Shown: positions 544 through 23,402 of the stretch, one piece after another
Position numbering within the stretch: the first letter of the stretch is position 1
How the letters are laid out: every line of letters begins with the position of its first letter
Source of the DNA: an uncultured bacterium
GTDB taxonomy: Bacteria > Zixibacteria > MSB-5A5 > GN15 > FEB-12
NCBI GenBank assembly: GCA_965372795.1
Contig: CBDVDR010000008.1
Location: 1 to 64,000 of the forward strand
Length of the DNA: 64,000 nt
Direction of reading: 5' to 3'
Translations under genes and position numbers: made by a program
The notes under the pieces: model-generated
Told to the model about the DNA's origin: nothing
The model's input: only the letters and a program-made list of their open reading frames with translations
Database searches by the model: none

Positions 544-768
544 CTTCTTTTCTCCTCTATTAGTGCTAACCTGATAATAAAGTTAAGCTGCATAAATATT
601 GTCTAAAGATAATGTACACAATTTATCTTTTATAAAATACTATTTCCTATATCTGAAAATTCATATTATTTTTTAAATTTGGATTGAGAATCGAACCCTA
701 AACTCGAGTTGTGGTGCAACCTAGAATTCCATGAACATCTTTTATAGGTTTTCGAAATTTCTTAAAAT

Positions 769-796
769 AAAAAAGCCCCCTGTAAAAGGGGGCTTT
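769..796 (-). terminator. Rho-independent terminator
   Basis: Stem AAAGCCCCCT/AGGGGGCTTT with a U-tract on the minus strand just after the cupin stop. Confidence 0.75.
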
Positions 797-815
797 CCAT
801 ATTATATTATATCAG

Positions 816-1187
816 TTAAGCTTCAGAAGCTAACTTCTTACCAATATGATCGTATAATTCTTTTAATTTTTTCTGAGGGCTGAATTCAACGAAAGTAGTA
901 TCTTCATCCACCCAGACAGTATGTCCGGCAGGCCAATAAAACATCTCACCAGCTTTGCATACTTCAACTTCGCCATTAGTATAACGAACGGTAATTGCAC
1001 CTTTGAGCATGTAACCCCAATGTGGACATTGGCATTTGTCATCAGGCAGTCCCTCAAGCAGTGGAGTGGCATCCACACCCGCTTTTAATTCGACGTAGGC
1101 TACTCCCATATCATCCCAGTCAATAGCCCGAAATGTCGCAATAGGCAATTCCAAGGCAATCGGTAATTCTTCTTTTTTTAGTTTCAA
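816..1187 (-). CDS. Cupin-domain protein
   Basis: CQCPHWGYMLKG ... FYWPAGH cupin motifs. Confidence 0.8.
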   Translation of the reverse strand: MKLKKEELPIALELPIATFRAIDWDDMGVAYVELKAGVDATPLLEGLPDDKCQCPHWGYMLKGAITVRYTNGEVEVCKAGEMFYWPAGHTVWVDEDTTFVEFSPQKKLKELYDHIGKKLASEA

Positions 1188-1530
1188 GATTCATCCCTTC
1201 AAAGTTGATTGCTTGGATTGTAAATACAACCAGCAACAGTTTTAGATTGTTATAACTCATCGTTAATGAGTAATTATAACTCCGTATTAGATATCTTAAT
1301 CAATAGCTTTCCACGGAGAGTTACCTGGTTTAAGGACTTTATTTATCTATTATGTATATATTATTTTCAGAAAAGTCAAGTAACAATAATTAGAGTGCTT
1401 TTTTAAAATAGTTTCTGGTGTTGACGCAAAGCTCATAATTAAGTAATTTATTTTTAAATAAAAAATGATGATTACCATACAAGAGTAATCTCAAATTTAC
1501 TTAATTGTTTTAAACTTCATAGAGGAAAAT

Positions 1531-2631
1531 ATGATCTGTGGCAATAGAAATTTCCAAAAAATAATAAGAATTTCACTCATTCTTATAGTTTTGTTAGTGT
1601 TCTCAAATGGAATCCAATCTCAGTTGGAGGCAACCGAAAATAAAATCGTTCTGGAACCGGTTGCCTTTTCCGACATTCAATGGACGGGCTTGGCAATAGC
1701 AAATAATGGCCGGTTATTTGTTAATTATCCACGCTGGTCAAATAATCTACCTTTTTCTGTTGCAGAACTCATTGATGGTAAGCCAGTCCCCTACCCTAAC
1801 CAAATAATGAATAGTTGGGAACCGGGTAAAGATCCTTCTACGCATTTAGTCTGTGTACAAGCCTTGTATATAGATAATAAAAATATGTTGTGGATTTTGG
1901 ATCCTGCTAACCCAATGTTCAAAGGCACCATTCCGAACGGACCCAAGTTGCTCCAAGTAGACCTTGTCACCAATACAGTAATCAAGACATATCCTCTTGG
2001 TTCTGAGATTGCACCTGAAATAAGTTATCTTAATGATGTCCGGATTGATACTAATAATGATTTCGCTTATATTACGGATTCAAAAGATGGTGCGTTAATT
2101 GTACTCAACCTAAAAACAGGCGAAGCTCGCAGGCGACTGGACAATCATCCCTCGACTGCATCAGAGAATGTGATTTTAACTGTTGGAGGAGAACCATGGA
2201 TGCGCAATGGTGAAAAAATCAGGGTTCATTCTGACGGAATTGCATTTGACCCGATTGGTGACTTTGTCTATTATCAAGTCCTGACAGGGCGTACAATGTA
2301 TCGAATCAAGGCTTCATTACTTCGACAGTTTAATCTTCCAGAAAGTGAAATTGAAAAAATGGTTGAAAAAGTCGGTCAAACCGGAGCTGCTGACGGACTC
2401 ATTTTCGGTCCTGATGGAAAAATCTATATCTCTGCTTTAGAGCATGATGCAATTTTCCGCACTACTCCTCAAGGTAATGTTGAAACAGTCATCAAAGATA
2501 AAGACATAGTATGGCCAGATTCTTTCAGCTTTGGCAAGGATAACAAACTTTATTTTACAACTTCACGAATTCATGAAGGTGGAGAACCAAAAGGACCGTT
2601 TGGAATATACCGTATCAAATTACCTAAATAA
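1531..2631 (+). CDS. Secreted major royal jelly protein / SMP-30-like beta-propeller (L-dopachrome tautomerase-related)
   Basis: Signal peptide; RLFVNYPRW, YLNDVRID, AYITDS, ADG and WPD motifs. Confidence 0.85.
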   Translation: MICGNRNFQKIIRISLILIVLLVFSNGIQSQLEATENKIVLEPVAFSDIQWTGLAIANNGRLFVNYPRWSNNLPFSVAELIDGKPVPYPNQIMNSWEPGKDPSTHLVCVQALYIDNKNMLWILDPANPMFKGTIPNGPKLLQVDLVTNTVIKTYPLGSEIAPEISYLNDVRIDTNNDFAYITDSKDGALIVLNLKTGEARRRLDNHPSTASENVILTVGGEPWMRNGEKIRVHSDGIAFDPIGDFVYYQVLTGRTMYRIKASLLRQFNLPESEIEKMVEKVGQTGAADGLIFGPDGKIYISALEHDAIFRTTPQGNVETVIKDKDIVWPDSFSFGKDNKLYFTTSRIHEGGEPKGPFGIYRIKLPK

Positions 2632-2778: not shown

Positions 2779-2919
2779 TAAGGTAGGAAATCACAAGCAA
2801 AGCTTATTTTATCTTATTGGGAGACAACCAAATACACGATATCGTTAAGAATGCCAACGATTTCCAGCTTTTATTTGGTTTTGTTTGGATTGGTCTATTC
2901 TGATCCTAATGTGGCACAA
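2779..2919 (-). repeat. Cassette junction repeat, long type A copy 1
   Basis: Eroded tmRNA-3' core, then CAAGCAAAGCTT...ATATCGTTAAGAATGCCAACGATTTCCAGCTTTTATTTGG...GTGGCACAA. Confidence 0.85.
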
Positions 2920-3104
2920 AAATTTACGCCCTACGAGATCGCTTTGATAGTGCTGGATCGTTCCGAGTATCTGGAAATATTGGGCTAAAGAATCCTCATA
3001 TTGCCATCCTGAATACTATCGTGAATTTTTAATTGACAGAAGCAACTTTTGCATATTCTTTGCATAAAATGAGCGTGTTATCATTAATCTATTATTCTAT
3101 TATT

Positions 3105-4046
3105 ATGAACATGAAGAAACTAATGAAAGTTCTATCAGTCACAACAATCTTGCTCTGCATCTTCTTTGAGACGACCTATGCCCTAAGCCCCGAGAAGGAG
3201 CATCGGGCAGTGCCTTCTGACTACAGCATAATCTACCGGGCAGTGGAAATAGGAACCTCCGATTCTATCACGATCAGGGGTTGGTTCTTTCCGGCGCAGG
3301 ATACCATCGGAATAATCAACGCGCTTGTCGGAAGCATGCCCATCCCACCGTCGTACAAAGGCACGGTGCGACCCTATCGGACTATCGATACAAACAAAAG
3401 AGCTACGATAATCATTTGCAACGGTGATTCAGGTAATATGGCCTACCAGATTCTCTACGCATACAACCTATTTACCAGGGGATTCAACGTTCTACTGTTC
3501 GATTGGCGCGGATTTGGACAGAGCGATGAGTGGCCTATGAATCCTGATCAGCTCTGTCTTACTGAGTTTCTTATAGATTATCGAGCTGCTCTGGATTACG
3601 TGAGGGAGCAGCCGGAAGTAGACAGTACACGAATCGGTGTATTCGGATTTTCCACAGGCGCCTATTTGTCCTTCGCGATTGCAGTCGAGTCGGATGACAT
3701 AGCCGCGTATGCCGGACGGGCTTTGATGACATCGTTTGATGAGGTAGCACCTATTCTTAGAGCACTTGCCCCGGATCGACCGCTACTACTACCGCAGAAT
3801 TATCCGGAAGAACTGCAACCCATAATCGCGGCGGCACGCATGACCAAGCCTGTTTTCTTGGTGGTTGGAGAGAATGATGATCGAACGCCTCCTGCGATGT
3901 CTCGACTTGTTTTTTCAAAGCTACAAGCACCCAAAGAATTGTGGGTTGTCGAAAATGCCGGTCATGGTGGTAGTAAAGCTCCGGAATTTGTTGACTACCC
4001 TTTATTCTTCCAACGACTGGCCGAGTTCTTCTCTGAACATCTGTAG
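3105..4046 (+). CDS. Secreted alpha/beta hydrolase
   Basis: FDWRGFGQS, nucleophile GFSTG, Asp (ENDDRT) and His (GHG). A start at 3105/3111 gives a signal peptide. Confidence 0.85.
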   Translation: MNMKKLMKVLSVTTILLCIFFETTYALSPEKEHRAVPSDYSIIYRAVEIGTSDSITIRGWFFPAQDTIGIINALVGSMPIPPSYKGTVRPYRTIDTNKRATIIICNGDSGNMAYQILYAYNLFTRGFNVLLFDWRGFGQSDEWPMNPDQLCLTEFLIDYRAALDYVREQPEVDSTRIGVFGFSTGAYLSFAIAVESDDIAAYAGRALMTSFDEVAPILRALAPDRPLLLPQNYPEELQPIIAAARMTKPVFLVVGENDDRTPPAMSRLVFSKLQAPKELWVVENAGHGGSKAPEFVDYPLFFQRLAEFFSEHL

Positions 4047-4113
4047 CTAATTTGACTTTCTGCAAGAAATAGATCAATCAGATTGACTCTGAATGACTAT
4101 GTGTAGAAATCAA

Positions 4114-4276
4114 TAGAGGGGGAATCACAAGCAAAGCTTGTTTTATCTTATTGGGAAACAACCAAATACACGATATCATTAAGAATGCCAACGATTTCCA
4201 GCTTTTGTTTGATTTTGTTTGGTTCTAATAATTCAGGTTACTTTACACCCAGGATGGCACAAATATGGCACAAGCT
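4114..4276 (-). repeat. Cassette junction repeat, long type A copy 2
   Basis: AGAGGGGGAATCACAAGCAAAGCTTG...TGGCACAAATATGGCACAAG. Confidence 0.9.
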
Positions 4277-4491
4277 CTATACCGTACCGTAGATCAATGT
4301 TAGGGTAGCAGGCGATTAGTTAGGTGGCGTTGGCAGTATTCAGTCAATAATAATTAGCATTGGAAAAGACCGTCCTAAGGCTCATCAAGATATTAACTGT
4401 TTACATTTTTCTGACGACAGTACATATTAACTCCCTATTGTGGGAGTGTTGGTCGCGGAACTATTTAAGGGATTATATGTTAAATTAGAAT

Positions 4492-4806
4492 ATGGTAAAT
4501 TTTGCTAACAAATCATTATTATTGCGTTTTGTAACAGCCTTGGCAATTATTCTTCTATTCGGAGTTCTGTTATTACCTACTGTAGCCGAAACTATGCAAA
4601 CTGACTGTGATGATGATTGTGATGATCACTGTGAATCAGTTTGTGGTTGTATTGGTTGTCCACCTGTAATATTATCTTATGAAATTTCGCCGCCAGAGCA
4701 TGTCCCAGCTATGAACATTCAAGGTTACTCAATAATCTCTTCCTCAGTAGGCATTGAGTACGAATGTCTTGATCGAGTAGATCGACCACCACAGACACTC
4801 ATCTAA
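4492..4806 (+). CDS. Small Cys/Asp-rich protein upstream of a metal efflux operon (CzcI-like position)
   Basis: Hydrophobic N-terminus, CDDDCDDHCESVCGCIGC, C-terminal DRPP motif. Confidence 0.6.
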   Translation: MVNFANKSLLLRFVTALAIILLFGVLLLPTVAETMQTDCDDDCDDHCESVCGCIGCPPVILSYEISPPEHVPAMNIQGYSIISSSVGIEYECLDRVDRPPQTLI

Positions 4807-4953
4807 ATATTTTTCAAATGCGACTGACCTTTCAACTCTGGTCGCACAAAACCATTATAATATTATGGGCTCGTTTGTGAGTCCAAAATTCTACTTGGTA
4901 CTTATGGTCGCTTATAAGCACCTTGAGTTTCAAAATATAGAGGAGTAATTTGT

Positions 4954-6630
4954 ATGAAGACACGTTTGTGGATTACCATTGTAGTTATTGTGATAGCAGG
5001 GGTTTCACTAACATCAATGGTCCTGTTAAATAATACAGAAGCAGATAAAGAGGATACTACCACCGAGAACCTAAGTTTACAGGTTTCCGGTAATATTGAT
5101 GTATTAGACTGGTGTGCTGAACATGCTGTGCCCGAATCAGAGTGTACACAATGCAATCCCTCACTCATAGATCATTATAAAACATCAAACGACTGGTGCG
5201 TCGGACATGATCTACCAGAATCGCATTGTCGTCTATGTAACCCGGAGATTAAATTCCTACAGGAATTTAGTATTGCTAATACAGAGACAGAACTTGATTG
5301 GTGCACTGAACACTCAGTGCCCGAATCAGAGTGTACTCAATGCAATCCTACTCTCATAGATCAATATAGGGCATCAAACGACTGGTGCGTCGGACATGAT
5401 CTTCCAGAATCGCATTGTCGTCTCTGTAACCCGGAGATTGAATTCCCACAGGAAGAAATACTGAAAATCCGCCATTTGGAATCTACCGGTAACAGCATAA
5501 AGGTTTCACTCTTCTTTCGTGACAATGCTGAAGTATGCGCAACCAACGACGCTCTTATACAATTTGCGTCGTCAAAGACTGCTGACAGATCAGGCATCAC
5601 CGTCCGTCGGACGTTTGCGGCTCCTTACGAAATCGAACTTGAAGCACCTGCTGAAATCCTGTTCGACGAGAATAGCACTACGGTGATAACTTCTTCTGTG
5701 AAAGTACTTGTTTCTCGATGGCTCATCTCACCAGGTGATGTAATCATGAAAGGAGAGCCAATTGCGATTTTGCAATCGTCGGAAATGGCAGAATTACAAG
5801 CACGGTTGATGTCAGCTGCTGCAGAGTTTACAGTTCAAGAGAAAGAGCTGGAAAGAGACGAAGCACTGGTATCGAAAAACCTCATTACCAAAAGCGACTA
5901 TGAACGCAGAATAGCTCTTAACAAAAAAGCGCAAGCAGAATTGACGAGTATAAGCGGCTTACTGTTGTCAAGTGGCATTAGTAAAACTGATATAGATGAA
6001 CTGCTTGTTAAGGGGATCGTTACGAATGAGTTTGTCTTACGAGCACCCAGCGCCGGTGTCATCGCTAAACGAATAGCCCAAGTAGGTGAGCTGCTTGAAG
6101 ACGGACAGGCATTAGCTATACTAACTGATCCCACTTCATTGTGGATAGAAGCACAATTGACAGAAGATCAAATCAAAAATGTTTATGTCGGGCAGGACCT
6201 GCTCTTTGCATCCGATGATGGTGCTCTAAATCGGGTCAAGGGAACCGTAATATGGGTATCCCCTTATCTTGACCCCCATACTCGAACAGGAATAGTACGA
6301 GCTCGGGTTGCCAATCAAGCTCATAATCTCCGAGCAGGGGAATTTGGACAAGTCACTATCATAAATACCCATGATTCTCAGGCTATATTGGTGCCTAAGG
6401 ACGCAGTTCAATGGGAAGGTTGTTGCAATGTAGTCTTTGTTAGAGAATCTCCCGACCGTTTCCGTCCTCGTAAAGTAGAACTTGCCGATGGACCCAGTTC
6501 ATATTACCAGGTGACCAATGGGTTATTGCAAGGGGAAGAAATTGTAGTTGATGGTTCCTTCCTGTTGAAGACTGAACTCAAAAAGACAAGTATCGGCGCT
6601 GGTTGCTGTGATGTCGGACCTGTGGGTTGA
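4954..6630 (+). CDS. Heavy-metal RND efflux periplasmic adaptor (CzcB/CusB-like) with four N-terminal Cys/His repeats
   Basis: MFP features (RAPSAGVI, LDPHTRT, VPKDAV); 4x WCxxHxxPESxCxxCNP. Confidence 0.9.
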   Translation: MKTRLWITIVVIVIAGVSLTSMVLLNNTEADKEDTTTENLSLQVSGNIDVLDWCAEHAVPESECTQCNPSLIDHYKTSNDWCVGHDLPESHCRLCNPEIKFLQEFSIANTETELDWCTEHSVPESECTQCNPTLIDQYRASNDWCVGHDLPESHCRLCNPEIEFPQEEILKIRHLESTGNSIKVSLFFRDNAEVCATNDALIQFASSKTADRSGITVRRTFAAPYEIELEAPAEILFDENSTTVITSSVKVLVSRWLISPGDVIMKGEPIAILQSSEMAELQARLMSAAAEFTVQEKELERDEALVSKNLITKSDYERRIALNKKAQAELTSISGLLLSSGISKTDIDELLVKGIVTNEFVLRAPSAGVIAKRIAQVGELLEDGQALAILTDPTSLWIEAQLTEDQIKNVYVGQDLLFASDDGALNRVKGTVIWVSPYLDPHTRTGIVRARVANQAHNLRAGEFGQVTIINTHDSQAILVPKDAVQWEGCCNVVFVRESPDRFRPRKVELADGPSSYYQVTNGLLQGEEIVVDGSFLLKTELKKTSIGAGCCDVGPVG

Positions 6631-6638
6631 GGTGATAT

Positions 6639-9600
6639 ATGCTAAAACATCTAGTTGAATTTACACTGAAATACAGATTAGTTGTACTAACATTAGGTGG
6701 TGTCTTTTGCATATTTGGGTTCGTAGCCCTTTGGAATCTACCTTTCGATGCATTTCCTGATACTACGCCAACTCTTGTACAAGTAAACGTATCTGCTCCG
6801 GGATGGGCTCCTGAAGAACTCGAAAAACTTGTGACCTTTCCTATTGAGCAATCCTTAACCGGACTCACCGGACTTAGTGAAGTTCGATCTGTTACGAAAT
6901 ATGGACTTTGTCAGGTAACTACTATATTTGAGGATGGCACAGATTTATATTTAGCTCGACAACAAGTAAGTGAACGACTATTAACGGCAGAGCTACCTGA
7001 TGGTGTCGGTGTGCCACAATTGGGACCAGTGTCAACCGGACTTGGTGAGATATTTCATTATATTGTCTTAGGTCCCTCCGGTGATCCAACTGGACCACGC
7101 ACGGCTCAGGATTGGCTAATTAAACCACAGCTACAAGCTGTTTCTGGTGTAGCAGAAGTCAACAGTTGGGGTGGATTTAAAAAACAATATCTTATTTTGT
7201 TCGATCCCGCGAAGATGGCACGATACGGGCTCACAGTCAATGAAGTAATTACGTCAATTAAGGATGATCTGGGTAACGTTCCCGGTGGTCAGGTTGTTCG
7301 AGGCGGTGAAATGACCCTGGTTCGGGGCATTGGTATTGTCGAATCCATTGAAGAGATTGAGAATATTGTCATTGATAGTCGCGAAGGTGTACCAATACTT
7401 GTACATAACATAGCTGATGTTGTTATTGGTCATGAGTTGCGACGGGGAGCAACTACTTACGACGGACAGGGAGAGGTAGTCCTCGGTTTAGGTTTCATGA
7501 TCACAGGTGAGAATCCACCTGAGGTAACCAAGCGGCTAGCCGAACGGCTTGCCGAAGCCACAAGTGCACTGCCTGACAGTATCCAGGCAATAACTGTCTA
7601 TGAGCGGACTGACCTTGTCAACAAAGTTCTTTCAACTGTCAAACACAACCTTTTCTACGGTGCTCTTTTGGTAATCGCCGTTCTGTTTGCATTCTTGGGT
7701 AATCTTAGAGCCGGATTGATTGTTGCATCTGTAATTCCGTTATCGATGCTCTTTGCCTTTGATATGATGTCAAGGGTGGGCATTGTTGGAAGCCTTATGA
7801 GTCTTGGAGCTATTGACTTTGGATTGGCTGTCGATAATGCCGTCATTCAGGTGGAGAATTCAGTCCGAAGACTAGCTCAAGCAGACCAATCTGCCAATCG
7901 TTTGCACGTTATTCGTGACGCCATTCTGGAAGTTAGAAAACCGACGCTGTTTGGTGAATTGATACTCATTATAGTTTATCTGCCAATTCTTACGCTTGAA
8001 GGTGTAGAAGGCAAACTCTTTCAGCCTATGGCTCTGACTGTTGTGTTTGTTCTCACCGGATCTCTCCTACTCTCGTTCACCGTTATCCCTGCATTGATTG
8101 GCACTTTTCTGACCAAGAACATTCGAGAACGAGAGCCGGTTTTTGTGAGTTGGTTACGTCGCCTTTATGAACCTGTTCTGGATTGGGCTTTACGTTTTCG
8201 AAAGGTTGTTATAGTTGGTGCCCTACTGATGATTGTGGGTGGAGCAATGCTCTCCAGTCGTCTTGGGTCTGAATTTGTACCGAGATTAAGCGAGGGAACG
8301 ATAGTTATCAATATTATACGGCTGGCCGGTATCTCTCTTGATCAAACGGTCGAGTATAATACTCAAATTGAACGAAATCTACTCAATGCATTTCAGGATG
8401 AGATTGAACATGTTTGGACACGCTCTGGCACAGCCGAGTTGTCTACAGATCCGATGGGTTTGGAATTGTCTGATATGTTTATTTCGTTGACGCCAAGAGA
8501 TCAGTGGACAAAAGCGAGCAGCCAACAGGAATTGGTAGCTGCCATAGATGCTGAATTAGCCGATCTTCCCGGACAGAATCGAATATTCACACAGCCCATC
8601 GAAATGCGAGTCAACGAAATGATTGCCGGCATTCGATCGGATATTGGAATCAAGTTATTTGGCGATGATCTGTCAGTCCTGGTGAATCAAGGGGAGCTGA
8701 TTGCGACGGTAGTCAAGCAAATACCAGGAGCTGCAGATGTATCTGTGGAGCAAATGACAGGACAACCACAGCTTCAGCTTAAAATAGATCGGCAAAGATT
8801 GGCTCGCTACGGTCTATCGGCGCGTGACGTTCTCGTTGCCATTGAGAGTATCGGGGGGCTTTCGGTAGGCGATGTCTTTGAAGGACAACGCCGATTTGAG
8901 TTAGTTGTGCGAGTTGATACTACACGCATCAAAGGTCCTGAAGATATTAGTCAAGTGTTACTGGCATCGAGCTCAGGCAGCTTGATAAGTCTTGATCAAG
9001 TGACAACTGCAACACTAAGTGAAGGTCCCACTACAATTACAAGGGAATGGAGTAAGCGTCGAATCGTAGTACAGTGTAATGTGCGAGATCGTGATATGGG
9101 ATCGTTTGTGGATGAACTCCGTGATCGCCTTGATTCTGAAATATCTCTGCCAACTGGGTATTTCATCAGACTCGGAGGACAGTTTGAAAACCTCGAACGC
9201 GCTCGAACTAAACTTGCAATCGTCGTGCCTATTGCTTTGCTGTTGATTTTTGGACTCCTATATTGGACTTATAAGTCAACAAGAGATGCCTTGCTGATTT
9301 TTTCCGGAGTGCCACTTGCCGCCATTGGAGGGGTCGTAGCACTTACCCTTCGAGGCATGCCTTTTTCGATATCTGCGGGGGTTGGTTTTATAGCTCTCTC
9401 TGGAATCGCTGTGCTCAATGGTCTTGTACTTGTTTCATCGATCAAACAGCTCCTGTCTGAAAGTAAGGATATTATTGCAGCAGTTAAGCAAAGCGCATTG
9501 ACCCGGCTCCGGCCTGTACTCATGACTGCCTTAGTCGCCGCGTTTGGTTTTATTCCAATGGCTATCTCTACCGGTGTAGGGGCAGAGGTGCAACGTCCTT

Positions 9601-9707: not shown

Positions 9708-9870
9708 GTGATGGAGTTCGAAGTCTGTTGACTCCGGATTCTATGTAAACTGCGGATTTATCAATGATCACGGTGACACCTCTCTTGCTAAGATATTATA
9801 CCAATGGAGGTGTTTCCACCTAATCTGAGTAGCCACGTAACTGTTGTATAATAACAATTTGGTGATCAAA

Positions 9871-10024: not shown

Positions 10025-10270
10025 TCTACATCAAGTGATCAAATATCTTTGTCTGTCACCATTCCATATTCTGTAATACTATGCGAAGTTGCCCTGCCGT
10101 CTCAAGCTACTTTGTAGCTTGTGAATGCCTTCAACCAATCACAATTGGATTATTCTTTTGATTAAAAAAGAATAATGCGAGTAATTGTAGCTACCCCTCC
10201 AATTGGGGTGTATCATAACATTGAATATACACAATTGCTAACAAGTATCAAAAAGTGAAGCCAGAATAGA

Positions 10271-14807: not shown

Positions 14808-15332
14808 TTATTGGGACCTCAAGATCTATAAATTTCTATAAGCTATGTGTGCAATTCAATGAAGTTACGAAATAATCATCATATTCGTTTGGAAAATTGT
14901 TGCATTTTCCTGTGATCTTTTCGGTTGTTTTGGTAAATATGAGGACCTGACTAATTAACAATTTTCATAAGAAAAATATTTTACAAGCTGAGCAAGAGAG
15001 GTCTGTGGATTTACCGATTACGATAACTAACATGTCACTATCATGATTGATTTTGTAGTTAGTACTAATAGCCTTGGAACAATCAAGCGTAAAATTAACA
15101 CCATCGAAGAACAAGCCATCTAGAAAAAATGACCCGCATATAATCCGGGGAATGTCAATAACAGTATTGCAGCCAAATATCTCGACCATGCTGGGAACAA
15201 TTATATTTACATCAAGAAAAGTGATCAGACAAAAAGGGGCTTAGTAGATTTATGGCATATAGTGGACACTTGGTTTTATCTTGTCAGACCGGGGTTGCGA
15301 CGCATCAATTATTCGGCTGCATACAAACAAAT

Positions 15333-15395
15333 TGGAGGGGGGATCGAACCACATTTTTGCATTGCAGCACAAGGACTTACACCATATTGTGACCA
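15333..15395 (-). repeat. Cassette junction repeat, short type B
   Basis: TGGAGGGGGGATCGAACC core, then GACTTACACCATATTGTGACCA (also at ~16783 and ~20845). Confidence 0.75.
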
Positions 15396-15547
15396 CTTCT
15401 TAGTGTACAATTAGTAGTTTATTGACCTTCGGATTATGAGCCAAATAATAACTTAATAATATAGTGGAGTTGGGTAGACAATCTTCGCAACTATTTTATT
15501 GTAAATAGAAAATTTTGAAATTGATAATAAGCTACAAACTATAGATT

Positions 15548-16294
15548 TTATCTGTTTTTTAAAGCTTCGATAACCAGTTCGCCTACGCGATGAGCTGATT
15601 GCGGATTTTGTCCGGTAACAACCCGATTATCACTAACAGCATTCGGCTGCCAGGGGTCAGCCGGAACAAAAATACCTCCCCGTTCGACTAATCTATCCTG
15701 CAACATAAACGGTACGACGGAATCAAGTTTAACCAGTATCTCTTCTTCGTTTGTAAAGGCGGCAAATTGTTTGTCTTTGATTAAATATTCACCTGAAGAT
15801 AGTTTGATTTCAGAAAGAGCTGCCGGTCCATGGCAGACCGCACCGACTACTCCGCCGTTTTCATAGATAGATTTAGAAATATTGTTTATATCAACATTGC
15901 CGGGGAAATCCCACATAGTACCATGACCTCCGCTGAAAATAATAGCTGAGAAGTCAGCTGGATTGATATCGGATAATTTTTTACTGTTGAGAACTCCGGA
16001 CATCAATTCAGCATCTTTGAGGAAGCGTCTATTTATTTGATCAGTTGTGTCCAAACTCCGTGGGTCAATTGGAGCAACTCCGCCTTTAATACTTGCAACT
16101 TCAACACCGAAGCCGGCATCTTTTAATACATAGTACGGGTGAGTTAATTCTGAAAGCCAGAATCCAGTTGGTTTGCCGGTGTTTCCCATTAGAGAATGAC
16201 TGGTGACAACAATCAGTACTTTTTCGGCAGCATTGGCAACTACACCAAGTGATAAAACCGTTAATAATATCGCTAATATAACAAGTCGTTTCAT
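15548..16294 (-). CDS. DJ-1/PfpI (type 1 glutamine amidotransferase-like) protein with signal peptide
   Basis: TGFWLSEL, GGHG, AVCHGP, VTGQNPQS. Confidence 0.92.
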   Translation of the reverse strand: MKRLVILAILLTVLSLGVVANAAEKVLIVVTSHSLMGNTGKPTGFWLSELTHPYYVLKDAGFGVEVASIKGGVAPIDPRSLDTTDQINRRFLKDAELMSGVLNSKKLSDINPADFSAIIFSGGHGTMWDFPGNVDINNISKSIYENGGVVGAVCHGPAALSEIKLSSGEYLIKDKQFAAFTNEEEILVKLDSVVPFMLQDRLVERGGIFVPADPWQPNAVSDNRVVTGQNPQSAHRVGELVIEALKNR

Positions 16295-16617
16295 TTTTAA
16301 TATTTCCTTTAATTTGGTACGCTTTTGATTGGTAATAACACTGACAAGTGAGAAATGTTCCTTTGTTTGATTCTTCTGATAAAAATTATTACTGAAGGCT
16401 CGAACTCATACTGCTTTTTTATTATAACTTCAGATCCAATAATCATTCTAAGTGTAAAGTAAACCATTGAAAGAACAATTACTATGTCCAAATTGTCTCC
16501 TCAGTTGTTGTAAGTTATTGGTAGTTATTCAGAGTTATAGAAAAAGAAGTTAAAATTTAACTAAAAACCCCTCTAGGATAGGTTCTATAATTCGTTGGCT
16601 TGTAATTTTTTTTAAAT

Positions 16618-16814
16618 TGAAGGTGGGAGAAATCGCAGGCATAGCCTGTTTAATTTTTTTGGGAGACGATCAAATACACGATATCGTAATGAATTTCAAT
16701 AATTTACAGCATTTATTTGGTTCTGGAAAATCAGTCTATTTTGATCCCAATGTGGCACAAATATGGCACAAGCTAACCAAATGACTTACACCCAATTGTG
16801 ACCATATTGTGACC
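16618..16814 (-). repeat. Cassette junction repeat, type A plus type B arm (copy 5)
   Basis: Core plus type A body plus TGGCACAAATATGGCACAAG plus GACTTACACCCAATTGTGACCATATTGTGACC. Confidence 0.9.
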
Positions 16815-16845
16815 GTTCTCCTTACTCGATTAATCATCCGCTCCT

Positions 16846-17241
16846 TTAGTACTCTGGAGATATACCGGTTGCATCTGCTACAGGATACCGGCCGATTGTA
16901 TCCACTGGTGATGACAGCGAAACATACTGCGGAACCACACGTGCCGGCTTATCTGCTAACCATGCGGATGCACCGAACCCCGTTGCCAGGCTGATTACGA
17001 TTACCGCCGCAGTCCTCAAAAGCGGCAAGAGCGCCTTTCGAATTCTGGTGGAAGTGGCTGTTTCGGTCACCGGTCGCTCCGGATGAATGCTACTTATGAC
17101 ATCTATATCGCTCAACACTCTTTTCAGTGATGAGCGACACGATTGACAGGCTTCAAGGTGTCTTTCGATTTCCATACTTTCGTCGTCATCGTCAACTATC
17201 TTGAGCCCATACTCGAGAAGTCTATCTTCATTGATGTGCAT
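16846..17241 (-). CDS. Zinc-finger (zf-HC2) anti-sigma factor
   Basis: HLEACQSC (HxxxCxxC) plus a TM helix, directly after an ECF sigma. Confidence 0.8.
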   Translation of the reverse strand: MHINEDRLLEYGLKIVDDDDESMEIERHLEACQSCRSSLKRVLSDIDVISSIHPERPVTETATSTRIRKALLPLLRTAAVIVISLATGFGASAWLADKPARVVPQYVSLSSPVDTIGRYPVADATGISPEY

Positions 17242-17777
17242 TACTCTAACACTCCTTTCCTTCGCAAAATGTCGCGACAGGACTTAACGGCATAGAAGAT
17301 TCGTGATTTAACGGTTCCAATCGGAACGCTCAACAGCTCCGAAATTTCCAAATAGCTGTGCCCGCCGTAGAAGCGTAACAGGAGGATGTCACGATGTTCC
17401 GTGTCGAGGCTGCTAATTGCCCCCGCGATGAGACGCTGACGTTCATCTTTCAGGAGCTGTTCCATAGGGTTTTCAACGTTATCTAGAAGTTCATTTGTCT
17501 CCAGGCCGACATGTCGCCCGACTCGGCGTTTTTCTTTAATAGCCAGGCGATAAGCAATAGTCCCAAGGAAGCCATTAACCGTACCTGAGGTATTATTAAT
17601 GGTGGCGCTAAGCGCCCGAACGAACGTCTCTTGAACAATGTCTTCCGCGGCTACGCTTGATCGGGTGATCAACAGTCCCAGTGCCATAAGGCGCGGCCGA
17701 TATTCTTCCATCAGCTCACGCCATGAGTTTTCGTCTCCTCGCCGGGCGCAAAAAAAGAGGTCCCACTCCGGGTTCAC
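17241..17777 (-). CDS. ECF RNA polymerase sigma factor
   Basis: AEDIVQETF, SYLEISELLSVPIGTVKSR. Probable GTG start at 17777 overlaps the upstream TGA (GTGA coupling). Confidence 0.92.
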   Translation of the reverse strand: MNPEWDLFFCARRGDENSWRELMEEYRPRLMALGLLITRSSVAAEDIVQETFVRALSATINNTSGTVNGFLGTIAYRLAIKEKRRVGRHVGLETNELLDNVENPMEQLLKDERQRLIAGAISSLDTEHRDILLLRFYGGHSYLEISELLSVPIGTVKSRIFYAVKSCRDILRRKGVLE

Positions 17778-19033
17778 TTTTTCTGTGGCTCCGAACACTC
17801 TAATCCCTGATTCTTGCACCATTCATCAACGCTTTCTATATCTGATCCGTAACATGCCCACATCTCAGCGACCCAGTGTCTGAATTCCTGACTGATGTGT
17901 TTCTCAGCATGAGCAACATACCAGTTAAACACGGGGAGGACTAAATCCGGTGTATTTTTTTTAAGCTCCGGCAAGCTTACAGCTATTCTCGAAGCGTAAG
18001 CCATCATCTGTAATCGGCCTGCGTCACCTGGTGGCGCGTGACGCAGCCTCCAACTGTCCAGCCCTCCGGTTAAAAAACCGGTAGTCCAGATGGTAAATGC
18101 CTTTCGCAGCTGGTCGCTGTACGGTGTGTCGGACGGCGTGACGAGCGTCGCCAAACCGAGTTGCCTACCGTTATTGGCCAGCTCTTTCAGCTCCTGGGCT
18201 ACCTGGAATGTAGCGGCAAAATATACTGGCCGGCGGGCGCGCTCGGCCGAGATCACAAGCGTCTTGATGAGTGAGTCGCTGACCTGTCCACCTTCAGAAT
18301 CGCGAAGCTTCTCCAGTTCGCTCTCACTGATAAACCGGGGCAGTCCCCGTTCAATGATATACAGCGGGTACCATTCTGTATTCAACAGATGACGGTTGAC
18401 GATCCTTATATCGGGACGGATCCCAAGTATTCGTGTCAGAATCCATACCGGGTAAGTGTCGTTGTCACCGTTGGTAATTAGAATGGCGTTTTCGTCAAGA
18501 CCTATCAATGTATTGTAGTTGTAATCCATCACTTCATCGGGGATGATTCCGCTCTTGAGCAGACTGCGCAGGGCTAGATCAAGCCGCTCTTCGTCGCGCG
18601 CATTCATATAGATTATTACAAGCCCGAACCACGCATCGGTGTAGCTCGGATCGAGACGCACCGCCTCTTCAAGATACTTCCGCTCCTGCGAGTCGTCTTG
18701 TCTACCGTGATGCACCATCGATTTCAGATATAGCAGCGTGGGGTTAGCGTAATACTTCTCCAAACCGACATCCAGTAATCTGGCATAATCTTCCTGCCCG
18801 GCATACCGAGCGGCATACATCCAGTTGGCGTACGCGTTCTCGGATGGATATTCATCATAGTAGCTTTTCCATAATCCGGCCATCTTCTCGTAGGTTGGCT
18901 GGTCATAGATAACTTGCCGCTTGCTCTTGATTTCTGTGGGTCGGACGACCTCGTCGGCCGAAAGATTCGCCGAGCCACTGAAACTGATCAGAAAAAAGGC
19001 AGTGATTGAAATGAGGATTCTCTTTTTGTTCAT
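17774..19033 (-). CDS. Secreted TPR-containing protein with ITNGDNDTYP motif (DUF2723 C-terminal-like)
   Basis: Signal peptide, TPR-like EEAVRLDPSYTDAW, GDNDTYP. Confidence 0.65.
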   Translation of the reverse strand: MNKKRILISITAFFLISFSGSANLSADEVVRPTEIKSKRQVIYDQPTYEKMAGLWKSYYDEYPSENAYANWMYAARYAGQEDYARLLDVGLEKYYANPTLLYLKSMVHHGRQDDSQERKYLEEAVRLDPSYTDAWFGLVIIYMNARDEERLDLALRSLLKSGIIPDEVMDYNYNTLIGLDENAILITNGDNDTYPVWILTRILGIRPDIRIVNRHLLNTEWYPLYIIERGLPRFISESELEKLRDSEGGQVSDSLIKTLVISAERARRPVYFAATFQVAQELKELANNGRQLGLATLVTPSDTPYSDQLRKAFTIWTTGFLTGGLDSWRLRHAPPGDAGRLQMMAYASRIAVSLPELKKNTPDLVLPVFNWYVAHAEKHISQEFRHWVAEMWACYGSDIESVDEWCKNQGLECSEPQKK

Positions 19034-19192
19034 CGGTAGTTCTCCTTGTTTAACGAGATAATCTCTCGACTCCGATTTTGTTCAGAAAAAACTTTCCTAA
19101 TGACCGAAATAGCCCGGAGAACTCATATCGATCACTCGGGCTCGGGGCTTGATGTCGCCGCAAGCTATTGAAATGTAATGGATTATAACAAT

Positions 19193-19212
19193 TGGAGGTG
19201 AGGGGAATCGAA
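19193..19212 (-). repeat. Cassette junction, core-only copy of the tmRNA 3' end
   Basis: TGGAGGTGAGGGGAATCGAA matches the ssrA 3' end at 19/20 positions. Confidence 0.85.
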
Positions 19213-19247
19213 TACCGGCCTTTCCGTCCTGATGACACTCTTATCAA

Positions 19248-20342
19248 TCACTCTTGCACTCTGAGTCGTACCAAGGTAATCTCATTTGAAGTACCCATAC
19301 GTATTCTAGGCCCAATAGTTCCCGCTCCCTGAGAAACAAAGAAATAAGTACCCTCTCTTTTATATAGACCTTTATTAAGAGGATACAGTAAAGTGGCAAA
19401 AAGAGTCGCGGGAAAAACCTGTCCAGCATGTGTATGCCCTGATAACATCAAATCAACATCTCTCATGATAACGTACTCTAATCCTACTGGACTATGATGC
19501 ATAAGGACGATTGGCTTATCGTCTTGGAGACGAATCTTGGGAAACTCTTCCTTTATAGTTAATTCATTAACAGCATGCACGTCAAAGGCGTCCTCGTCTG
19601 CATTCATATAATCGAGTCCTACGAGTTGGATTCCATTAATCTCGACAACTTCGTTGCGCAGGATGCGGACTCCATGGCTTGCTATGATCTTGAGTGCCCG
19701 CTCTGTATCAACATAACTTTCGTGGTTTCCAATAGTGAAATAAGTCGGTGCATTTAGCTCACTCAAAGGCGATAGAACGCCCGACTCCAATGCGCTATTG
19801 CCATCAACGAGGTCGCCGTTGATCAGAACAAGATCCGGCTTAAGGCGGTTAGTCTCGTACACAATCTGTTCCAAGTATAATCTACCACGATGGTGACCAA
19901 TGTGCACGTCCGAGATATGCATAAGTGTAACATCTTCTTGGAGTCCAACAATTGGGACCTCGATCGTTTCAATATTGAGAATACTTGCCCGCCAAGCTCC
20001 GATGATCGTAAGCAAAACAGCGAGCCCCAAAGCGACTGCTACCCCCAACTGACCCGGAATGCGAACCACAAATCGAGAGGTGTCAAGCACTAGAAGCAAT
20101 ATTGTAAGCATGACGTGAAGATAGAAAATCAATCCTGCAACTGTTGCCAGAGTATCGAATAACGGCCTTGTAGAGTTAGCGAATGCGAGCATTCCTATGA
20201 AACTTAGAAGCACTGTCACTGCGATAGACGCATATAGTGGCCAAGTCCGTCCCAATTCCATCAGTCGGGACAGACAGAATGGTACATACCAGATCGACAT
20301 TGCGATTAATCCTAAGATAGAAACGGCTGCAGCAGTTTTCAA
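19248..20342 (-). CDS. Membrane-anchored metallophosphoesterase (YkuE/YaeI-like)
   Basis: N-terminal TM helices; DVH, GDLVD, GNHE, HHSP and SGHTHAGQ motifs. Confidence 0.9.
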   Translation of the reverse strand: MKTAAAVSILGLIAMSIWYVPFCLSRLMELGRTWPLYASIAVTVLLSFIGMLAFANSTRPLFDTLATVAGLIFYLHVMLTILLLVLDTSRFVVRIPGQLGVAVALGLAVLLTIIGAWRASILNIETIEVPIVGLQEDVTLMHISDVHIGHHRGRLYLEQIVYETNRLKPDLVLINGDLVDGNSALESGVLSPLSELNAPTYFTIGNHESYVDTERALKIIASHGVRILRNEVVEINGIQLVGLDYMNADEDAFDVHAVNELTIKEEFPKIRLQDDKPIVLMHHSPVGLEYVIMRDVDLMLSGHTHAGQVFPATLFATLLYPLNKGLYKREGTYFFVSQGAGTIGPRIRMGTSNEITLVRLRVQE

Positions 20343-20679
20343 AAGTAGGTTAATAACTATTTGACTCCCTTAGTTCCCTCAATTATACAAACATTATCTT
20401 TTGTAGGTATAATGCGGGACTTTAGTATCAGAGGTTAAATTCGTAAATTCTCTTGTTTGATCATCATCGAATTCATTTGTCGCCATAGACAAGTTTCTCT
20501 TAGCTTAAACTTATATTTGATTATTATCAAATAAGATAGATGGTATAACCTATTAAAACAATCTCAAACTCTGGTGTTCTGTTTTCCTAAATTGCTACCA
20601 AATCATGACCAAAGTGGTTAGGTGTTATTGGGGGATATAACAGGCGAAATTGCCGTTAAGGCTTTGTGGCACAATAAAA

Positions 20680-20876
20680 TGGAGGTTGGGGGAATCGCAA
20701 GCAAAGCCTGTTTAATTTTATTGGGAGATATGTAATTTCACGACATCGTTAAGAATGCTAACGATTTTCAGCTTTTATTTGGTTCTGGAATATCAGGCTG
20801 TTTTACACCCAATATGGCACAAATATGGCACAAGAAATATGAATGACTTACACCGTATTGTGGCCATACTGTGACA
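20680..20876 (-). repeat. Cassette junction repeat, type A plus type B arm (copy 6)
   Basis: TGGAGGTTGGGGGAATCG (17/18 match to ssrA end), type A body, TGGCACAA x2, then GACTTACACCGTATTGTGGCCATACTGTGAC. Confidence 0.92.
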
Positions 20877-21009
20877 TGTTTTTTTAGCCTAAATTAATTA
20901 CGATGGCTTAATCGTATTACGGCCCGTACCAGACCAGCGATGTGTAGGCACGCACCTGTTTCTAAACTTCAAACCCTATATCCTGAACCTTTTTTTCAGA
21001 TCGGTGATC

Positions 21010-22533
21010 TTACTTCACCAACTCAATTTCATTCGGTCGCCAGGTTTTATCAATCCATGCTTCAAGCGGTCCATATATACGAATTATCGTGAACCAGCTT
21101 TTGCCCGGGATTGTTTGAAGCCAGTTTTTCTCCTGCCCTTTCGGTGGTTTAGAACTGAAGTAAATGTCGTATGATCCATCCGAATTTATCTTAAATCCCT
21201 CGGATTGACTTCCAACAGTTGGGAACGGTTGTCCGGTTTGCAATTGGGATCTGGTCTGGGAGTCATATAATGTAACTGCCCAAAAATCTTTTGCCGGGGG
21301 ATTGGGCGGAATATGAAGTTTGTATGTTTTTGAGCCATCGAATATTTGTTTCTTAGAATCCAGAAATGCCATACCATAATCAGAACCAATTCCTGGCATG
21401 CTAATGGCCATCGCCGGTGTCACGGCTGTATAAGGATAATGGAACATAACTCGAGCGTCTGAATTCATTGCTCCGTTTTCCAAAAAGAAGACATTCTTAT
21501 TAGTATATGCCATCACCCAAGAGCTTTTAGCATCAGGGTAAATATAAGCTCCTTCATGGCGTGGATACCAGACAATCGCTCGGGCGGTTGCGTTGGCAAT
21601 GGCGACAGCATCGGTTAGAATCTTTTTCATTCTGGCGTCAGGTTTGAAAGGCTGTCCTTTAACAATTCCTATAGACGCAAATAAGCCGCGTGTTTCCGGG
21701 TCAAGCATCTCCATCGATTCGTATTGAATAATATCGTTGAGATGCTCATAAAAGCTATAGTCGTTGGAATGAATTGTATTAAATGACTTTTTAGAGCCGT
21801 TAATAAATTCCATTTTCGGTGGATTGTCTTTTTTAGCAAGCGGATAAATCTTTAAGTTATCCTTAATATTTTTGACGGCCGCATCAATTCCATTATCAAT
21901 AGAACCACGCATAAACAACCATACACCGTATGTTTTTGATCTCATGATATGGTAGCCACTTGGAATCTGTCCTTCATATCCGGGAGGAAGGACAAGATAC
22001 TTGCCTCCTTTCCCTTTGTCGGGGCCGACCGGACCAACATCGCCGATATATCTGAACCAGGCATCATTAAAAGCGCCAAGCATTCCCTGCGGGACTTCAA
22101 CAACTGTTGGACCATCGACTTTAAGGTCAAGTATTGGAGCTGCATAAAGGGTCGAGGTGTTACCGGTTAAAAACAATGGTTTTGAATCCAACAGCTCTTC
22201 CGTGATCATAACTTGATTAGATTTTTTAGCGCCAACTGCATGAGACCCATGTATCAAGCCGCGGATTGATGCTCCGGGCATACCCTTTAGAAATGCATCG
22301 ACTCCCCGCATAAGATCGAGGTTATCGTAAACAAGTTGCGCTGTTTTTTGGGTTGGGACACCGTCAAAAAATCCCAGGGTTCCGATTGATGTTTTGACTT
22401 CGTTCGGGGTCTGAATTGATTTCAATTCCACATCACTTACTTGGGCAGAAATTGGTTGAATGCCAACTACAAGAAGAGTTGCCAGCATCATCACCATCAA
22501 CATGTGATTCCTTTTCATAATTATTCCTTTCAT
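21010..22533 (-). CDS. DUF1254/DUF1214 secreted protein
   Basis: LTGNTSTLY, GPDKGKGGKYL, FWAVTLYD, NSDGSYDIYF, NWLQT...RIYGP. Confidence 0.9.
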   Translation of the reverse strand: MKGIIMKRNHMLMVMMLATLLVVGIQPISAQVSDVELKSIQTPNEVKTSIGTLGFFDGVPTQKTAQLVYDNLDLMRGVDAFLKGMPGASIRGLIHGSHAVGAKKSNQVMITEELLDSKPLFLTGNTSTLYAAPILDLKVDGPTVVEVPQGMLGAFNDAWFRYIGDVGPVGPDKGKGGKYLVLPPGYEGQIPSGYHIMRSKTYGVWLFMRGSIDNGIDAAVKNIKDNLKIYPLAKKDNPPKMEFINGSKKSFNTIHSNDYSFYEHLNDIIQYESMEMLDPETRGLFASIGIVKGQPFKPDARMKKILTDAVAIANATARAIVWYPRHEGAYIYPDAKSSWVMAYTNKNVFFLENGAMNSDARVMFHYPYTAVTPAMAISMPGIGSDYGMAFLDSKKQIFDGSKTYKLHIPPNPPAKDFWAVTLYDSQTRSQLQTGQPFPTVGSQSEGFKINSDGSYDIYFSSKPPKGQEKNWLQTIPGKSWFTIIRIYGPLEAWIDKTWRPNEIELVK

Positions 22534-22542
22534 TTTATACTA

Positions 22543-22710
22543 TTACTTCACTTTTCCAACATCATCTAGGGTCCTGGATATTTCAAAAAGCGGTTTATAT
22601 TGACCGTGCAGGAGGAAGATAAAATAGAACTTCTCACCGGTCGGGACGTTGGTCGACTGCAAGTCTTTTAGACTTCTGCTGGACAGGCCGAAAACTGGGG
22701 CGTCTGCAAC
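22543..22710 (-). pseudogene. C-terminal remnant of a second DUF1214-type gene
   Basis: ...NVPTGEKFYFIFLLHGQYKPLFEISRTLDDVGKVK resembles the DUF1214 C-terminus (NWxPT..F.LxxRLYGP......W...D.E.V); lies immediately upstream of an intact family member. Confidence 0.55.
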
Positions 22711-23048
22711 TAAGCATTTGGTTTCCATGCTGTACACAATAGTAGTTTGCGTAATTGGCTTCCGATTCATATGGTTCAATGTGCAGATTATTACAGACTT
22801 TGTCTGTCGCATTTACTACGAAAGTCTTGTCCCCAAATCATCTACAAAGCTGACCAACGTCGGGAATTCTGGCAGACCGATAAAGCAACTTTGTAAGGCT
22901 CTCGGGATAGCGGTGAGTTTTGGTTGAGGAACATTAGTTGTCGTATTTGGTGGTAGGGCGAAAACTATTGCTCGGGGTACTTCGCGTGGTGGCGCACTTC
23001 CTAAATTGCAAACACACATTGAGTTACAATAGTGTAGTTAGAATAAAA

Positions 23049-23402
23049 TGGAGGTGGGGGGAATCGAACCCCCGTCCGAATCTAGCGTCAAGTCATCATC
23101 TACATGCGTAGGCTATCTATAATTTCTCGCTATATCAGCTGCCGAAAGCCAGGCCACCAATACAGCCAGTCTATTAGTTTAAGTTTCTCTTATAGACATC
23201 GAAAAACCGAGCCTTCTTTAACGGCGCTATATCCCAATCTTGAAGGCAAAAGATCAGGTACAACGGGCTAAACCTATTACTAGGCAGCCATGGCGTAATT
23301 ATTTTCGCCAAATAGTGTTTTGTCCGGTTTGATAACGAGGTTCCAAACATCCCCGGCACGCAAACAACCCCCCACTAAACCCGTCGAAGCCATGTCACCC
23401 CC
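23049..23402 (-). ncRNA. ssrA: tmRNA; tag peptide (A)GENNYAMAA
   Basis: 5' GGGGGTGACATGGCTTCGAC, 3' GACGGGGGTTCGATTCCCCCCACCTCCA with a G3-U alanine acceptor pair. Internal ORF GGC GAA AAT AAT TAC GCC ATG GCT GCC TAG TAA. Length 354 nt; CCA tail not encoded. Confidence 0.97.

Follow-up and report, generated by a model that had tools for sequence, protein, structure and literature searches.

The DNA analysed here, hereafter the window, covers the first 64 kb of contig C8 (CBDVDR010000008.1) in the genome assembly of an uncultured Zixibacteria bacterium (3.35 Mb in 69 contigs, 98.65% complete), and its subject is an array of about ten small gene segments that lies downstream of the transfer-messenger RNA gene (tmRNA, ssrA). 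An initial annotation of the window had described this array as a series of integrase-less cassettes with an integron-like architecture. The tmRNA gene itself is intact, and displaced copies of its tail, referred to as cores, recur in a single orientation; nine of them are clear. A scan with the 18-mer TGGAGGTGGGGGGAATCG, the end of the gene as read on the plus strand, at no more than 3 mismatches gave five matches (0.01 expected), at 11657, 16618, 19193, 20680 and 23049, all on the plus strand. The cores at 2779, 4114, 9871 and 13355 differ from the tmRNA end by about 4–7 edits in a manual alignment, a degeneracy that is common by chance and not significant for any of them singly; they were accepted because the module described below directly follows each. 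The tenth copy of the initial annotation, at 680, is doubtful, as it scored at the background level of an edit-distance scan that penalised end gaps and whose values are read only relative to their own background. Upstream of the gene, a 28-nt copy (96%) of the tmRNA 5′ end and a few preceding bases (cf. 23380-23407) was found at 23472-23499, 92 nt away, perhaps an old duplication or the relic of a 5′-side attachment (att) site.

Direct-repeat search and alignment revealed a non-coding module of about 150 nt directly to the right of six cores. A profile built from the six window copies themselves recovered all of them by nhmmer (at 2780, 4112, 9869, 13358, 16618 and 20681; E ~1e-41 to 1e-47), in agreement with the initial annotation, and detected in the rest of the genome (3.3 Mb) one partial module, at C10:20290-20404 (E 2e-11), together with three short hairpin-only matches. 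Of the seven module copies in 3.35 Mb, six belong to the array, where they share one orientation and each immediately follows a copy of the tmRNA end; the genome-wide scatter that the initial annotation had named as a sign of a dispersed repeat was not found. The six copies form one clade, with a mean identity of 78% among themselves (74–82%) and of 61% to those of other genomes.

Two observations elsewhere in the genome touch on this module. The partial copy on C10 covers profile positions 54-157, has no core and is situated some 280 nt upstream of a small gene; a homologue of this gene, 72% identical, is part of the ssrA array of another genome, G063 (L074). On C13, a duplicated tRNA-Ser 3′ end (C13:52349-52387) is followed by the same hairpin and T run with which the long module of the window opens; it lies 50 nt from the real end of tRNA-Ser(cga) (C13:52434-52519) and resembles a minimal remnant, at a tRNA, of the same element family.

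The module just described, the long module, terminates in TGGCACA-N4-TGGCACA. A second junction piece, the short form, contains ATTGTGACC twice with 11-bp spacing. At the core at 15333, GAACC is followed by about 15 nt and then by GCACAAGGACTTACACC.TATTGTGACC, and the short piece also closes two of the long modules, at 16764 and 20826. Identity with the tmRNA stops at ...AATCG, in the T-loop, in the long-module copies, and extends to GAACC (T-loop or T-stem) in two short-form copies, which bears out the T-loop crossover of the initial annotation. The features of the locus are listed in Table 1.

Table 1. Coordinates of the tmRNA gene, cores, junction elements and cargo genes in the window
Feature	Position	Strand	Details
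tmRNA gene (ssrA), tag GENNYAMAA	23049-23402	-	ARAGORN; Rfam RF00023, 184.9 bits; 3′ end at 23049 anchors the array
Core, last 18 nt of tmRNA	23049-23066	+	0 mismatches
Core copy	20680-20697	+	1 mismatch
Core copy without module behind it	19193-19210	+	1 mismatch
Core copy	16618-16635	+	3 mismatches
Core copy with indels, short-form junction	15333-15350	+	tmRNA identity to GAACC; nhmmer E 9e-11 for the short form
Degenerate core copy	13355-13371	+	validated by the following module
Core copy without module behind it	11657-11674	+	2 mismatches
Degenerate core copy	9871-9885	+	validated by module
Degenerate core copy	4114-4127	+	validated by module
Very degenerate core copy	2779-2793	+	validated by module only
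Doubtful core copy	680-697	+	background-level match; supported solely by a loose resemblance to the short-form start
Long module (distal att arm), one TGGCACA left	2780-2923	+	nhmmer
Long module ending in TGGCACAAATATGGCACAAG	4112-4276	+	nhmmer
Long module ending in TGGCACAAATATGGCACAAG	9869-10024	+	nhmmer
Long module, one TGGCACA left	13358-13501	+	nhmmer
Long module plus short-form piece (ACTTACACC..ATTGTGACC twice)	16618-16815	+	nhmmer
Long module plus short-form piece	20681-20876	+	nhmmer
Short-form junction piece directly behind core 15333	15357-15399	+	nhmmer
P2, tmRNA-proximal cassette-end element (GTGACC-type repeats ... GTTATTGGGGGATATA)	20591-20640	+	40 nt left of core 20680
Segment 680-2779: cupin	816-1187	-	
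Segment 680-2779: MRJP/SGL beta-propeller protein	1531-2631	+	N-terminal hydrophobic stretch
Segment 2779-4114: alpha/beta hydrolase	3033-4046	+	S9/S33-like
Segment 4114-9871: small Cys/Asp-rich protein, HlyD/CusB-like adaptor, AcrB/CusA-like RND pump	4492-9707	+	
Segment 9871-11657: serine beta-lactamase-family protein	10271-11605	+	GC 0.32
Segment 11657-13355: 204-aa protein of no family and metallophosphoesterase	11719-13163	-	
Segment 13355-15333: FMN_red-like flavoprotein	14049-14807	-	
Segment 15333-16618: DJ-1/PfpI family protein	15548-16294	-	
Segment 16618-19193: anti-sigma factor, extracytoplasmic function (ECF) sigma factor, 419-aa TPR-like protein	16846-19033	-	anti-sigma factor zf-HC2-like, weak
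Segment 19193-20680: membrane metallophosphoesterase	19248-20342	-	
Segment 20680-23049: DUF1254/DUF1214 protein	21010-22533	-	

Cargo and recombinase genes

The ten intervals between the cores measure 1285–5757 bp, and the GC content of the segments ranges from 0.335 to 0.490, compared with 0.381 in positions 24001-64000; the sizes of 1.3–5.8 kb and the differing base composition given initially are both borne out by these figures. By Pfam, the cargo is unrelated from segment to segment. The genes left of 11657 are mostly on the plus strand (816-1187 is on the minus strand), and those right of it are on the minus strand. Inside the HlyD/CusB-like gene, a 159-nt direct repeat (5107-5265 and 5296-5454, 89% identity) encodes a doubled Cys-rich N-terminal segment with CxxC motifs.

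No integrase, excisionase, replication, packaging or conjugation family was detected in the open reading frames (ORFs) of the array, small ones included, using Pfam (17 main array ORFs and 19 further small ORFs) and PHROGs (18 ORFs), just as the initial annotation had it, and no serine recombinase was found among the window proteins by Pfam. Integrase remnants in the intervals had been named there as a sign of ordinary decayed islands; tblastn with three proteins of the Int-1 family introduced below, run over positions 1-24000 of the window, gave no such relic (best E 0.42). The whole genome contains four tyrosine recombinase genes, which at the closest are 24–35% identical to Int-1 or to a second family, Int-2.

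Further features lie outside the array. On C6, two tRNA-Thr(cgt) genes are separated by 15 kb, and a tyrosine integrase directly follows the first of them (C6:75954-91193); this is probably a separate integrated island. Beyond ssrA, the window contains a BlaI-type repressor gene with a BlaR1-peptidase M56 gene behind it, the latter fused to a TonB C-terminal domain (25682-27654), and a thiamine pyrophosphate (TPP) riboswitch on the minus strand (62532-62627; Rfam RF00059, 72.7 bits).

Two integrase families and their arms in related genomes

The relatives examined were 160 genomes of the same order (Zixibacteria metagenome-assembled genomes, MAGs), one per species. The end motif of the long module, TGGCACAAATNTGGCACA, was found in 38 of the 160, and its reversed control in 0. 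It occurs in two settings. In the first, which the window also shows, it forms part of a long module that follows a displaced tmRNA or tRNA end; in the second, it lies between the start codon of an integrase gene and, about 70 nt further on, an intact tmRNA or tRNA end. The integrase beside it is of the tyrosine type, about 360 aa long, with PF00589 and PF13102 domains; its ssrA form, designated Int-1, is 73–80% identical between genera and, counted at a threshold of at least 66% identity, is present as the ssrA type in 14 of the 160 genomes. Against the integron-integrase profile, Int-1 scored 88.7 bits (cut-off 265).

Complete Int-1 elements are found in G046, where the integrase lies at ssrA and a core with a long module 25.7 kb off, and in G137, where the distance is 34–37 kb; the cargo of the former includes Hachiman-like and restriction-type defence genes and a relaxase-like gene. 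An Int-1 integrase is also located at ssrA in G130, G118 and G052, and integrase-bearing and integrase-less units are adjacent in G052 and G046. The TGGCACA repeat is present on both arms of the complete Int-1 elements of relatives; the window shows the distal arm only, in six segments. In G012, a core, a long module, the integrase-side arm and the tmRNA follow one another with nothing between the two TGGCACA repeats, as would be expected after a deletion between them.

The second integrase, Int-2, is about 340 aa long, is 33–38% identical to Int-1 and occurs in 8 of the 160 genomes; in six of these (G132, G155, G002, G041, G071 and G107) it adjoins the tmRNA. An arm of the form ATTGTGACCAAATTGTGACC ... 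GTTATTCGGTGTTATTC is located between its start codon and the core in G132, G155 and G071, and a related arm follows the stop codon of the gene in G107. This arm is homologous to the P2 element of the window; P2, which has the form GTGACCAAATCGTGNCCAAAATGG ... GTTATTGGGGGATATA, lies just left of cores in integrase-less arrays, and GTGACC repeats are common to the Int-2 arm and the short form. Judged by these likenesses, the short form and P2 look like the two arms of Int-2-type units minus the integrase. Two other roles for P2 were considered and rejected: that of a promoter of a conserved neighbour gene, as the neighbours differ among genomes, and that of the ancestral chromosomal flank of ssrA, as copies of P2 are also found within arrays and the element shares homology with the Int-2 arm. 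In G135, G012 and G015 (L062, L024 and L122), a decayed longer tmRNA 3′ fragment, consisting of the core and T-arm (about 32 nt), is located between P2 and the next core, so the cassette end itself carries a fossil att site.

Integrase-less arrays across the order

The initial annotation had proposed a search of related genomes for the repeat, and the two remaining junction elements were found there as well: the short-form motif, counted at up to 2 mismatches, was detected in 60 of the 160 genomes (control 1), often with its copies clustered beside the tmRNA, and P2 in 31 (control 0). The arrangement of these elements was measured at 31 P2 sites in 30 fetched loci. A core lies 14–127 nt downstream in 20 of the 31 sites, 11 times at exactly 80 nt and 5 times at 41 nt; the short form lies at 123–126 nt from P2 in six sites, five of them at exactly 124 nt, and the long-module motif takes its place in another five. 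The genes flanking P2 are unrelated between genomes.

One integrase-less array of a relative is that of G015, in which five perfect cores enclose four cassettes of 1.6–5.3 kb, each starting with the short form and one ending in P2. Their cargo comprises two beta-lactamase-family proteins, a kinase-TPR protein and a DUF4185 protein, and a TspO gene lies just past the outermost core. Int-2 was not found in G015, and its one Int-1 relative (58% identical) is on another contig. When the loci downstream of ssrA were mapped in relatives (n = 22), an Int-1 integrase was found at ssrA in 5, and several cores without an integrase at ssrA in G035, G135, G009, G076, G085, G027, G063, G021, G039 and G012, among other genomes, and one core each in G077 and G022.

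A comparison at ssrA with relatives, also proposed initially, set the array apart from its surroundings. In G001, the sole other genome of the genus and a fragmented one, positions 3500-23400 of the window find a match at the tmRNA gene only (88%), whereas positions 23400-43000, the 19.6 kb on the other side of ssrA, find 18 matches (65–91%). With no match in the array (3500-23048) and 18 beyond ssrA, the array region is accessory. The gene order downstream is unlike that of all 18 related loci compared, so the native flank and the far end of the array are not fixed by it; the upstream side is syntenic with G012. The three-gene unit with the ECF sigma factor recurs in the same order in 12 other genomes of the 160, and in G140 and G141 it lies 6–7 kb from the tmRNA with no recognisable cores around it, a position that may point to a shared cassette.

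In related MAGs, many of the tmRNA genes (for example those of G120, G047, G054, G023, G121 and G048) are located within a few hundred bases of a contig end, and the repeats behind ssrA may break such assemblies. A metagenome scan for the module lineage of the window (ATCRTNAAGAAYGCYAACNATTT) gave 7 matches, all of them chance matches in unrelated sequence, and the short-form motif had 0 matches in IMG/VR. The exact motif TGGCACAAATNTGGCACAA was present in 97 IMG/VR viral contigs, 80 of which were fetched (L148-L227); in most of these 80 it falls within the final codons of an unrelated integrase gene by a tRNA gene, and in a second group between the integrase stop codon and the tRNA end. These contigs carry no information on the present system; the motif may be a widely reused arm-site word or a coincidence. 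Searched as text in the literature, the motif returned primers only, and among the matches listed in the literature naming Zixibacteria and tmRNA there was no account of such ssrA arrays.

Origin of the array and comparison with known systems

Taken together, we observed a defined junction anatomy, the absence of integrases from the array, matching arms on integrase-bearing elements of relatives and a spread of these arms across the order; serial site-specific insertion at ssrA, by units that bear the arms of two tyrosine-integrase families, is established. On balance, we favour the view that the array consists of stacked non-autonomous cassettes, bounded by att sites, that were probably moved in trans and are now frozen in this genome. 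About ten integrase-less segments would have been inserted one by one into the ssrA 3′ end, in the T-loop or T-stem, each insertion pushing the older ones outward and leaving a displaced copy of the tmRNA tail. Arms of the Int-1 type (TGGCACA-N4-TGGCACA) match the six long modules, and arms of the Int-2 type (GTGACC, 11-bp spacing) match the short forms at 15333, 16764 and 20826 and the P2 end at 20591. The integrase of a self-sufficient element of the same family would insert the cassettes and could excise them. Mobility in trans is suggested by a junction of fixed build with changing cargo, by junctions that outnumber integrases, by the perfect cores of G015 and by the lack of integrase relics. 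Because neither integrase is encoded in the genome and the outer cores are decayed, the array would here be a frozen record, one that supplies envelope, efflux and stress genes. The initial annotation had offered two alternatives, cassettes mobilised in trans or cargo deposited serially by one element family; what has been added is two candidate integrase lineages with matching arms, and it is from these patterns that we infer movement in trans.

Several points weigh against this interpretation. No cognate Int-1 or Int-2 is present in the whole assembly, where the initial annotation had suggested looking for an integrase, so nothing in this genome would be able to move the segments now. The cores at 11657 and 19193 have no arm at all, the long modules at 2780 and 13358 are each short of one TGGCACA, a recognisable proximal arm (P2) is found in 1 of the 10 segments only, and the outer cores are eroded to background level, which argues that they are not maintained. 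The single module clade, at an identity of only 74–82%, fits a host-specific cassette pool and equally old copies or gene conversion. In lambda-type systems, arm-type integrase sites are placed on both arms; by position and by likeness to such systems, the repeats beside Int-1 and Int-2 are putative arm-type sites, and the helper role of the two integrases is likewise proposed from position and analogy. In G052, an integrase-less cassette lies between the Int-1 element and the tmRNA, an order that can be read in two ways, as a later insertion in trans or as the Int-1 element having entered an outer core. The array reaches the start of the contig (window position 1), and its distal end lies beyond the contig. 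Public reads were available from 7 runs (shares 0.05–0.11); Logan contigs of four of these, mostly of low depth, gave patchy cover of the window. At this cover, neither circular forms nor empty sites nor strain-level gains or losses came to light, and the joints obtained were short-sided only (22–70 nt), of a type that arises from repeats or other organisms.

The best-supported alternative is that the segments are ordinary decayed islands, which once carried an integrase, later lost the integrase end by deletion and were never mobile without it. We regard this as rather unlikely. It is consistent with the integrase-bearing elements of relatives that have the same distal module, with the deletion product visible in G012, with the decayed outer cores, with the nine of ten segments that show no recognisable proximal arm and with a genome that has no Int-1- or Int-2-type integrase; in Prochlorococcus, remnants of tycheposons with partial tRNAs have been described in such islands (bioRxiv 10.1101/2020.12.28.424599). 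By the same description, however, those remnants contain fragmented integrases, and none of the 10 segments has such a fragment. Decay would moreover need ten independent deletions, each taking the integrase and the arm and sparing the next core, and it does not predict that the P2-core-short-form spacing is fixed across many genera with unrelated cargo, that the cores of G015 are perfect in an integrase-less array, or that short-form junctions occur in 60 genomes and Int-2 in 8.

A second alternative, that a host recombinase moves the cassettes in the manner of integrative mobile elements exploiting Xer (IMEX), appears highly improbable. Two of the four tyrosine recombinases of the genome look like Xer-type housekeeping enzymes (C6:26505-27014 and C12:31861-32385), all four are only distant from Int-1 and Int-2 (24–35%), and most short-form genomes have no Int-2, as this idea would expect. 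However, the sites on which Xer enzymes act are of the dif type and have no arm sites; the arm repeats of the cassettes agree with the repeats adjoining Int-1 and Int-2 and not with a dif-like site, and the Xer-like genes have no link to ssrA. There is similarly little to be said for a mainly regulatory long module, in which TGGCAC-N5-TGGCA would be the −24/−12 element of a sigma-54 promoter for the cargo, spread together with the genes. Its motif TGGCACNNNNNTKGCA matches four times in the window, all within modules (0.05 expected), RpoN is encoded in the genome, a cassette of G039 carries a sigma-54 activator, and the next gene is on the plus strand in three of the six module-bearing segments; in the other three, however, module and cargo are on opposite strands, the repeat also occurs between integrase start and tmRNA end, where it is aimed at no gene, and on both arms of complete elements, and the −12 box is one base off the TTGCW consensus. 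Lastly, a dispersed repeat of the repetitive extragenic palindromic (REP) or miniature inverted-repeat transposable element (MITE) type, or a segmental duplication, unrelated to site-specific integration, has next to nothing in its favour: one coreless partial module on C10 would suit it, against six of seven copies in the array, in one orientation and directly behind tmRNA ends, cargo that is unrelated between segments, and the same arms adjoining integrases in relatives.

A bolder form of the trans-mobilised cassette interpretation, which we put forward tentatively as rather less than probable, is that Zixibacteria possess a dedicated family of two-armed, integrase-less mini-cassettes in whose junction the proximal arm, tmRNA core and distal arm stand at fixed spacing, that this family is the main vehicle by which accessory genes are exchanged at ssrA, and that rare Int-1 and Int-2 helpers insert and excise it in trans, amounting to integron-like capture with a visiting integrase. 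If cassettes do move in trans, ssrA in this uncultured phylum would be an open gene-capture site fed by a community pool, which would explain the swapping of envelope, efflux and stress genes in sediment bacteria with few recognisable mobile elements. If they are only remnants, the array would be a clean, stratified record of past insertions, of ordinary interest. The analysis also provides components open to experiment, namely two integrases with their likely arm sites and a fixed-spacing junction of about 230 bp, and integrase-based island finders would miss the whole 22-kb region.

Among known systems, cis-mobilizable elements (CIMEs) of the streptococcal ICE (integrative and conjugative element) and IME (integrative and mobilizable element) families accrete site-specifically at a tRNA-type site, in tandem with self-sufficient elements related to them, and they are usually single elements beside an ICE. 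As CIMEs are described, the segments resemble them in being bounded by att sites on either side and in lacking genes for recombination or transfer; unlike them, up to ten are stacked here and the helper is absent from the genome.

In Dehalococcoides, multiple tandem islands have been described downstream of a single ssrA, with bounding repeats of about 20 bp and insertion in the T-loop; 16 islands keep a six-gene integration module that includes a CcrB-like serine recombinase, DsiB, and some ssrA islands without the module were proposed to be cis-mobilizable (PMC3146451). On that description, tandem stacking, T-loop insertion, conserved repeat flanks and units without an integration module are all shared with the present array. 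It differs in that the candidate enzymes are two tyrosine integrases (PF00589) with arm-type repeats, that none of the ten window segments has a recombinase, and that the phylum (Zixibacteria) and the cargo are different. In Prochlorococcus, successive integrations of tycheposons at tRNA and tmRNA genes are described as pushing older ones outward, leaving partial tRNAs and remnants; tycheposons are defined by integrase and replication modules, and their cargo is niche-adaptive (bioRxiv 10.1101/2020.12.28.424599). Their islands are like the array in lying at a tmRNA-type gene, in outward displacement, in scattered partial tail copies and in niche-adaptive cargo; unlike tycheposons as so described, the units of the window are clean, small and integrase-free, with conserved arms, and no replication genes were found in them. 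The initial annotation had proposed that ssrA acts as a gene-capture platform; such a role, with stacked islands of which some have no recombinase, is already in print for Dehalococcoides (PMC3146451), as are stacked insertions and remnants at tRNA and tmRNA genes for Prochlorococcus (bioRxiv 10.1101/2020.12.28.424599). The islands found by Islander and TIGER are described as having an intact target gene, a displaced 3′ fragment at the far end and an integrase inside each island (PMC4383910). The intact tmRNA with displaced 3′ copies fits this description, as does the integrase that adjoins the target gene in relatives (G046, G137, G130, G118 and G052); the window segments differ in lacking one.

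The initial annotation had likened the array to an integron. An integron is an ordered stack of cassettes at a fixed site, the cassettes having no recombinase of their own, with a resident intI, an adjacent attI and Pc promoter, and with attC sites (imperfect inverted repeats) between cassettes that share one orientation. An ordered stack of small, recombinase-less cassettes at one fixed site is common to both. Unlike in an integron, no integrase lies at or near the array, and a resident intI and attI are absent; in place of attC hairpins, as judged from primary sequence, the junctions consist of direct repeats derived from the tmRNA plus an arm of about 150 nt, and since they point in both directions, the cassettes are not transcribed from a common promoter. 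The array departs from the integron in each defining feature tested, and the integron-like architecture of the initial annotation is retained as an analogy only. The present array contributes a pair of candidate helper integrases with matching arm repeats, together with a defined junction architecture.

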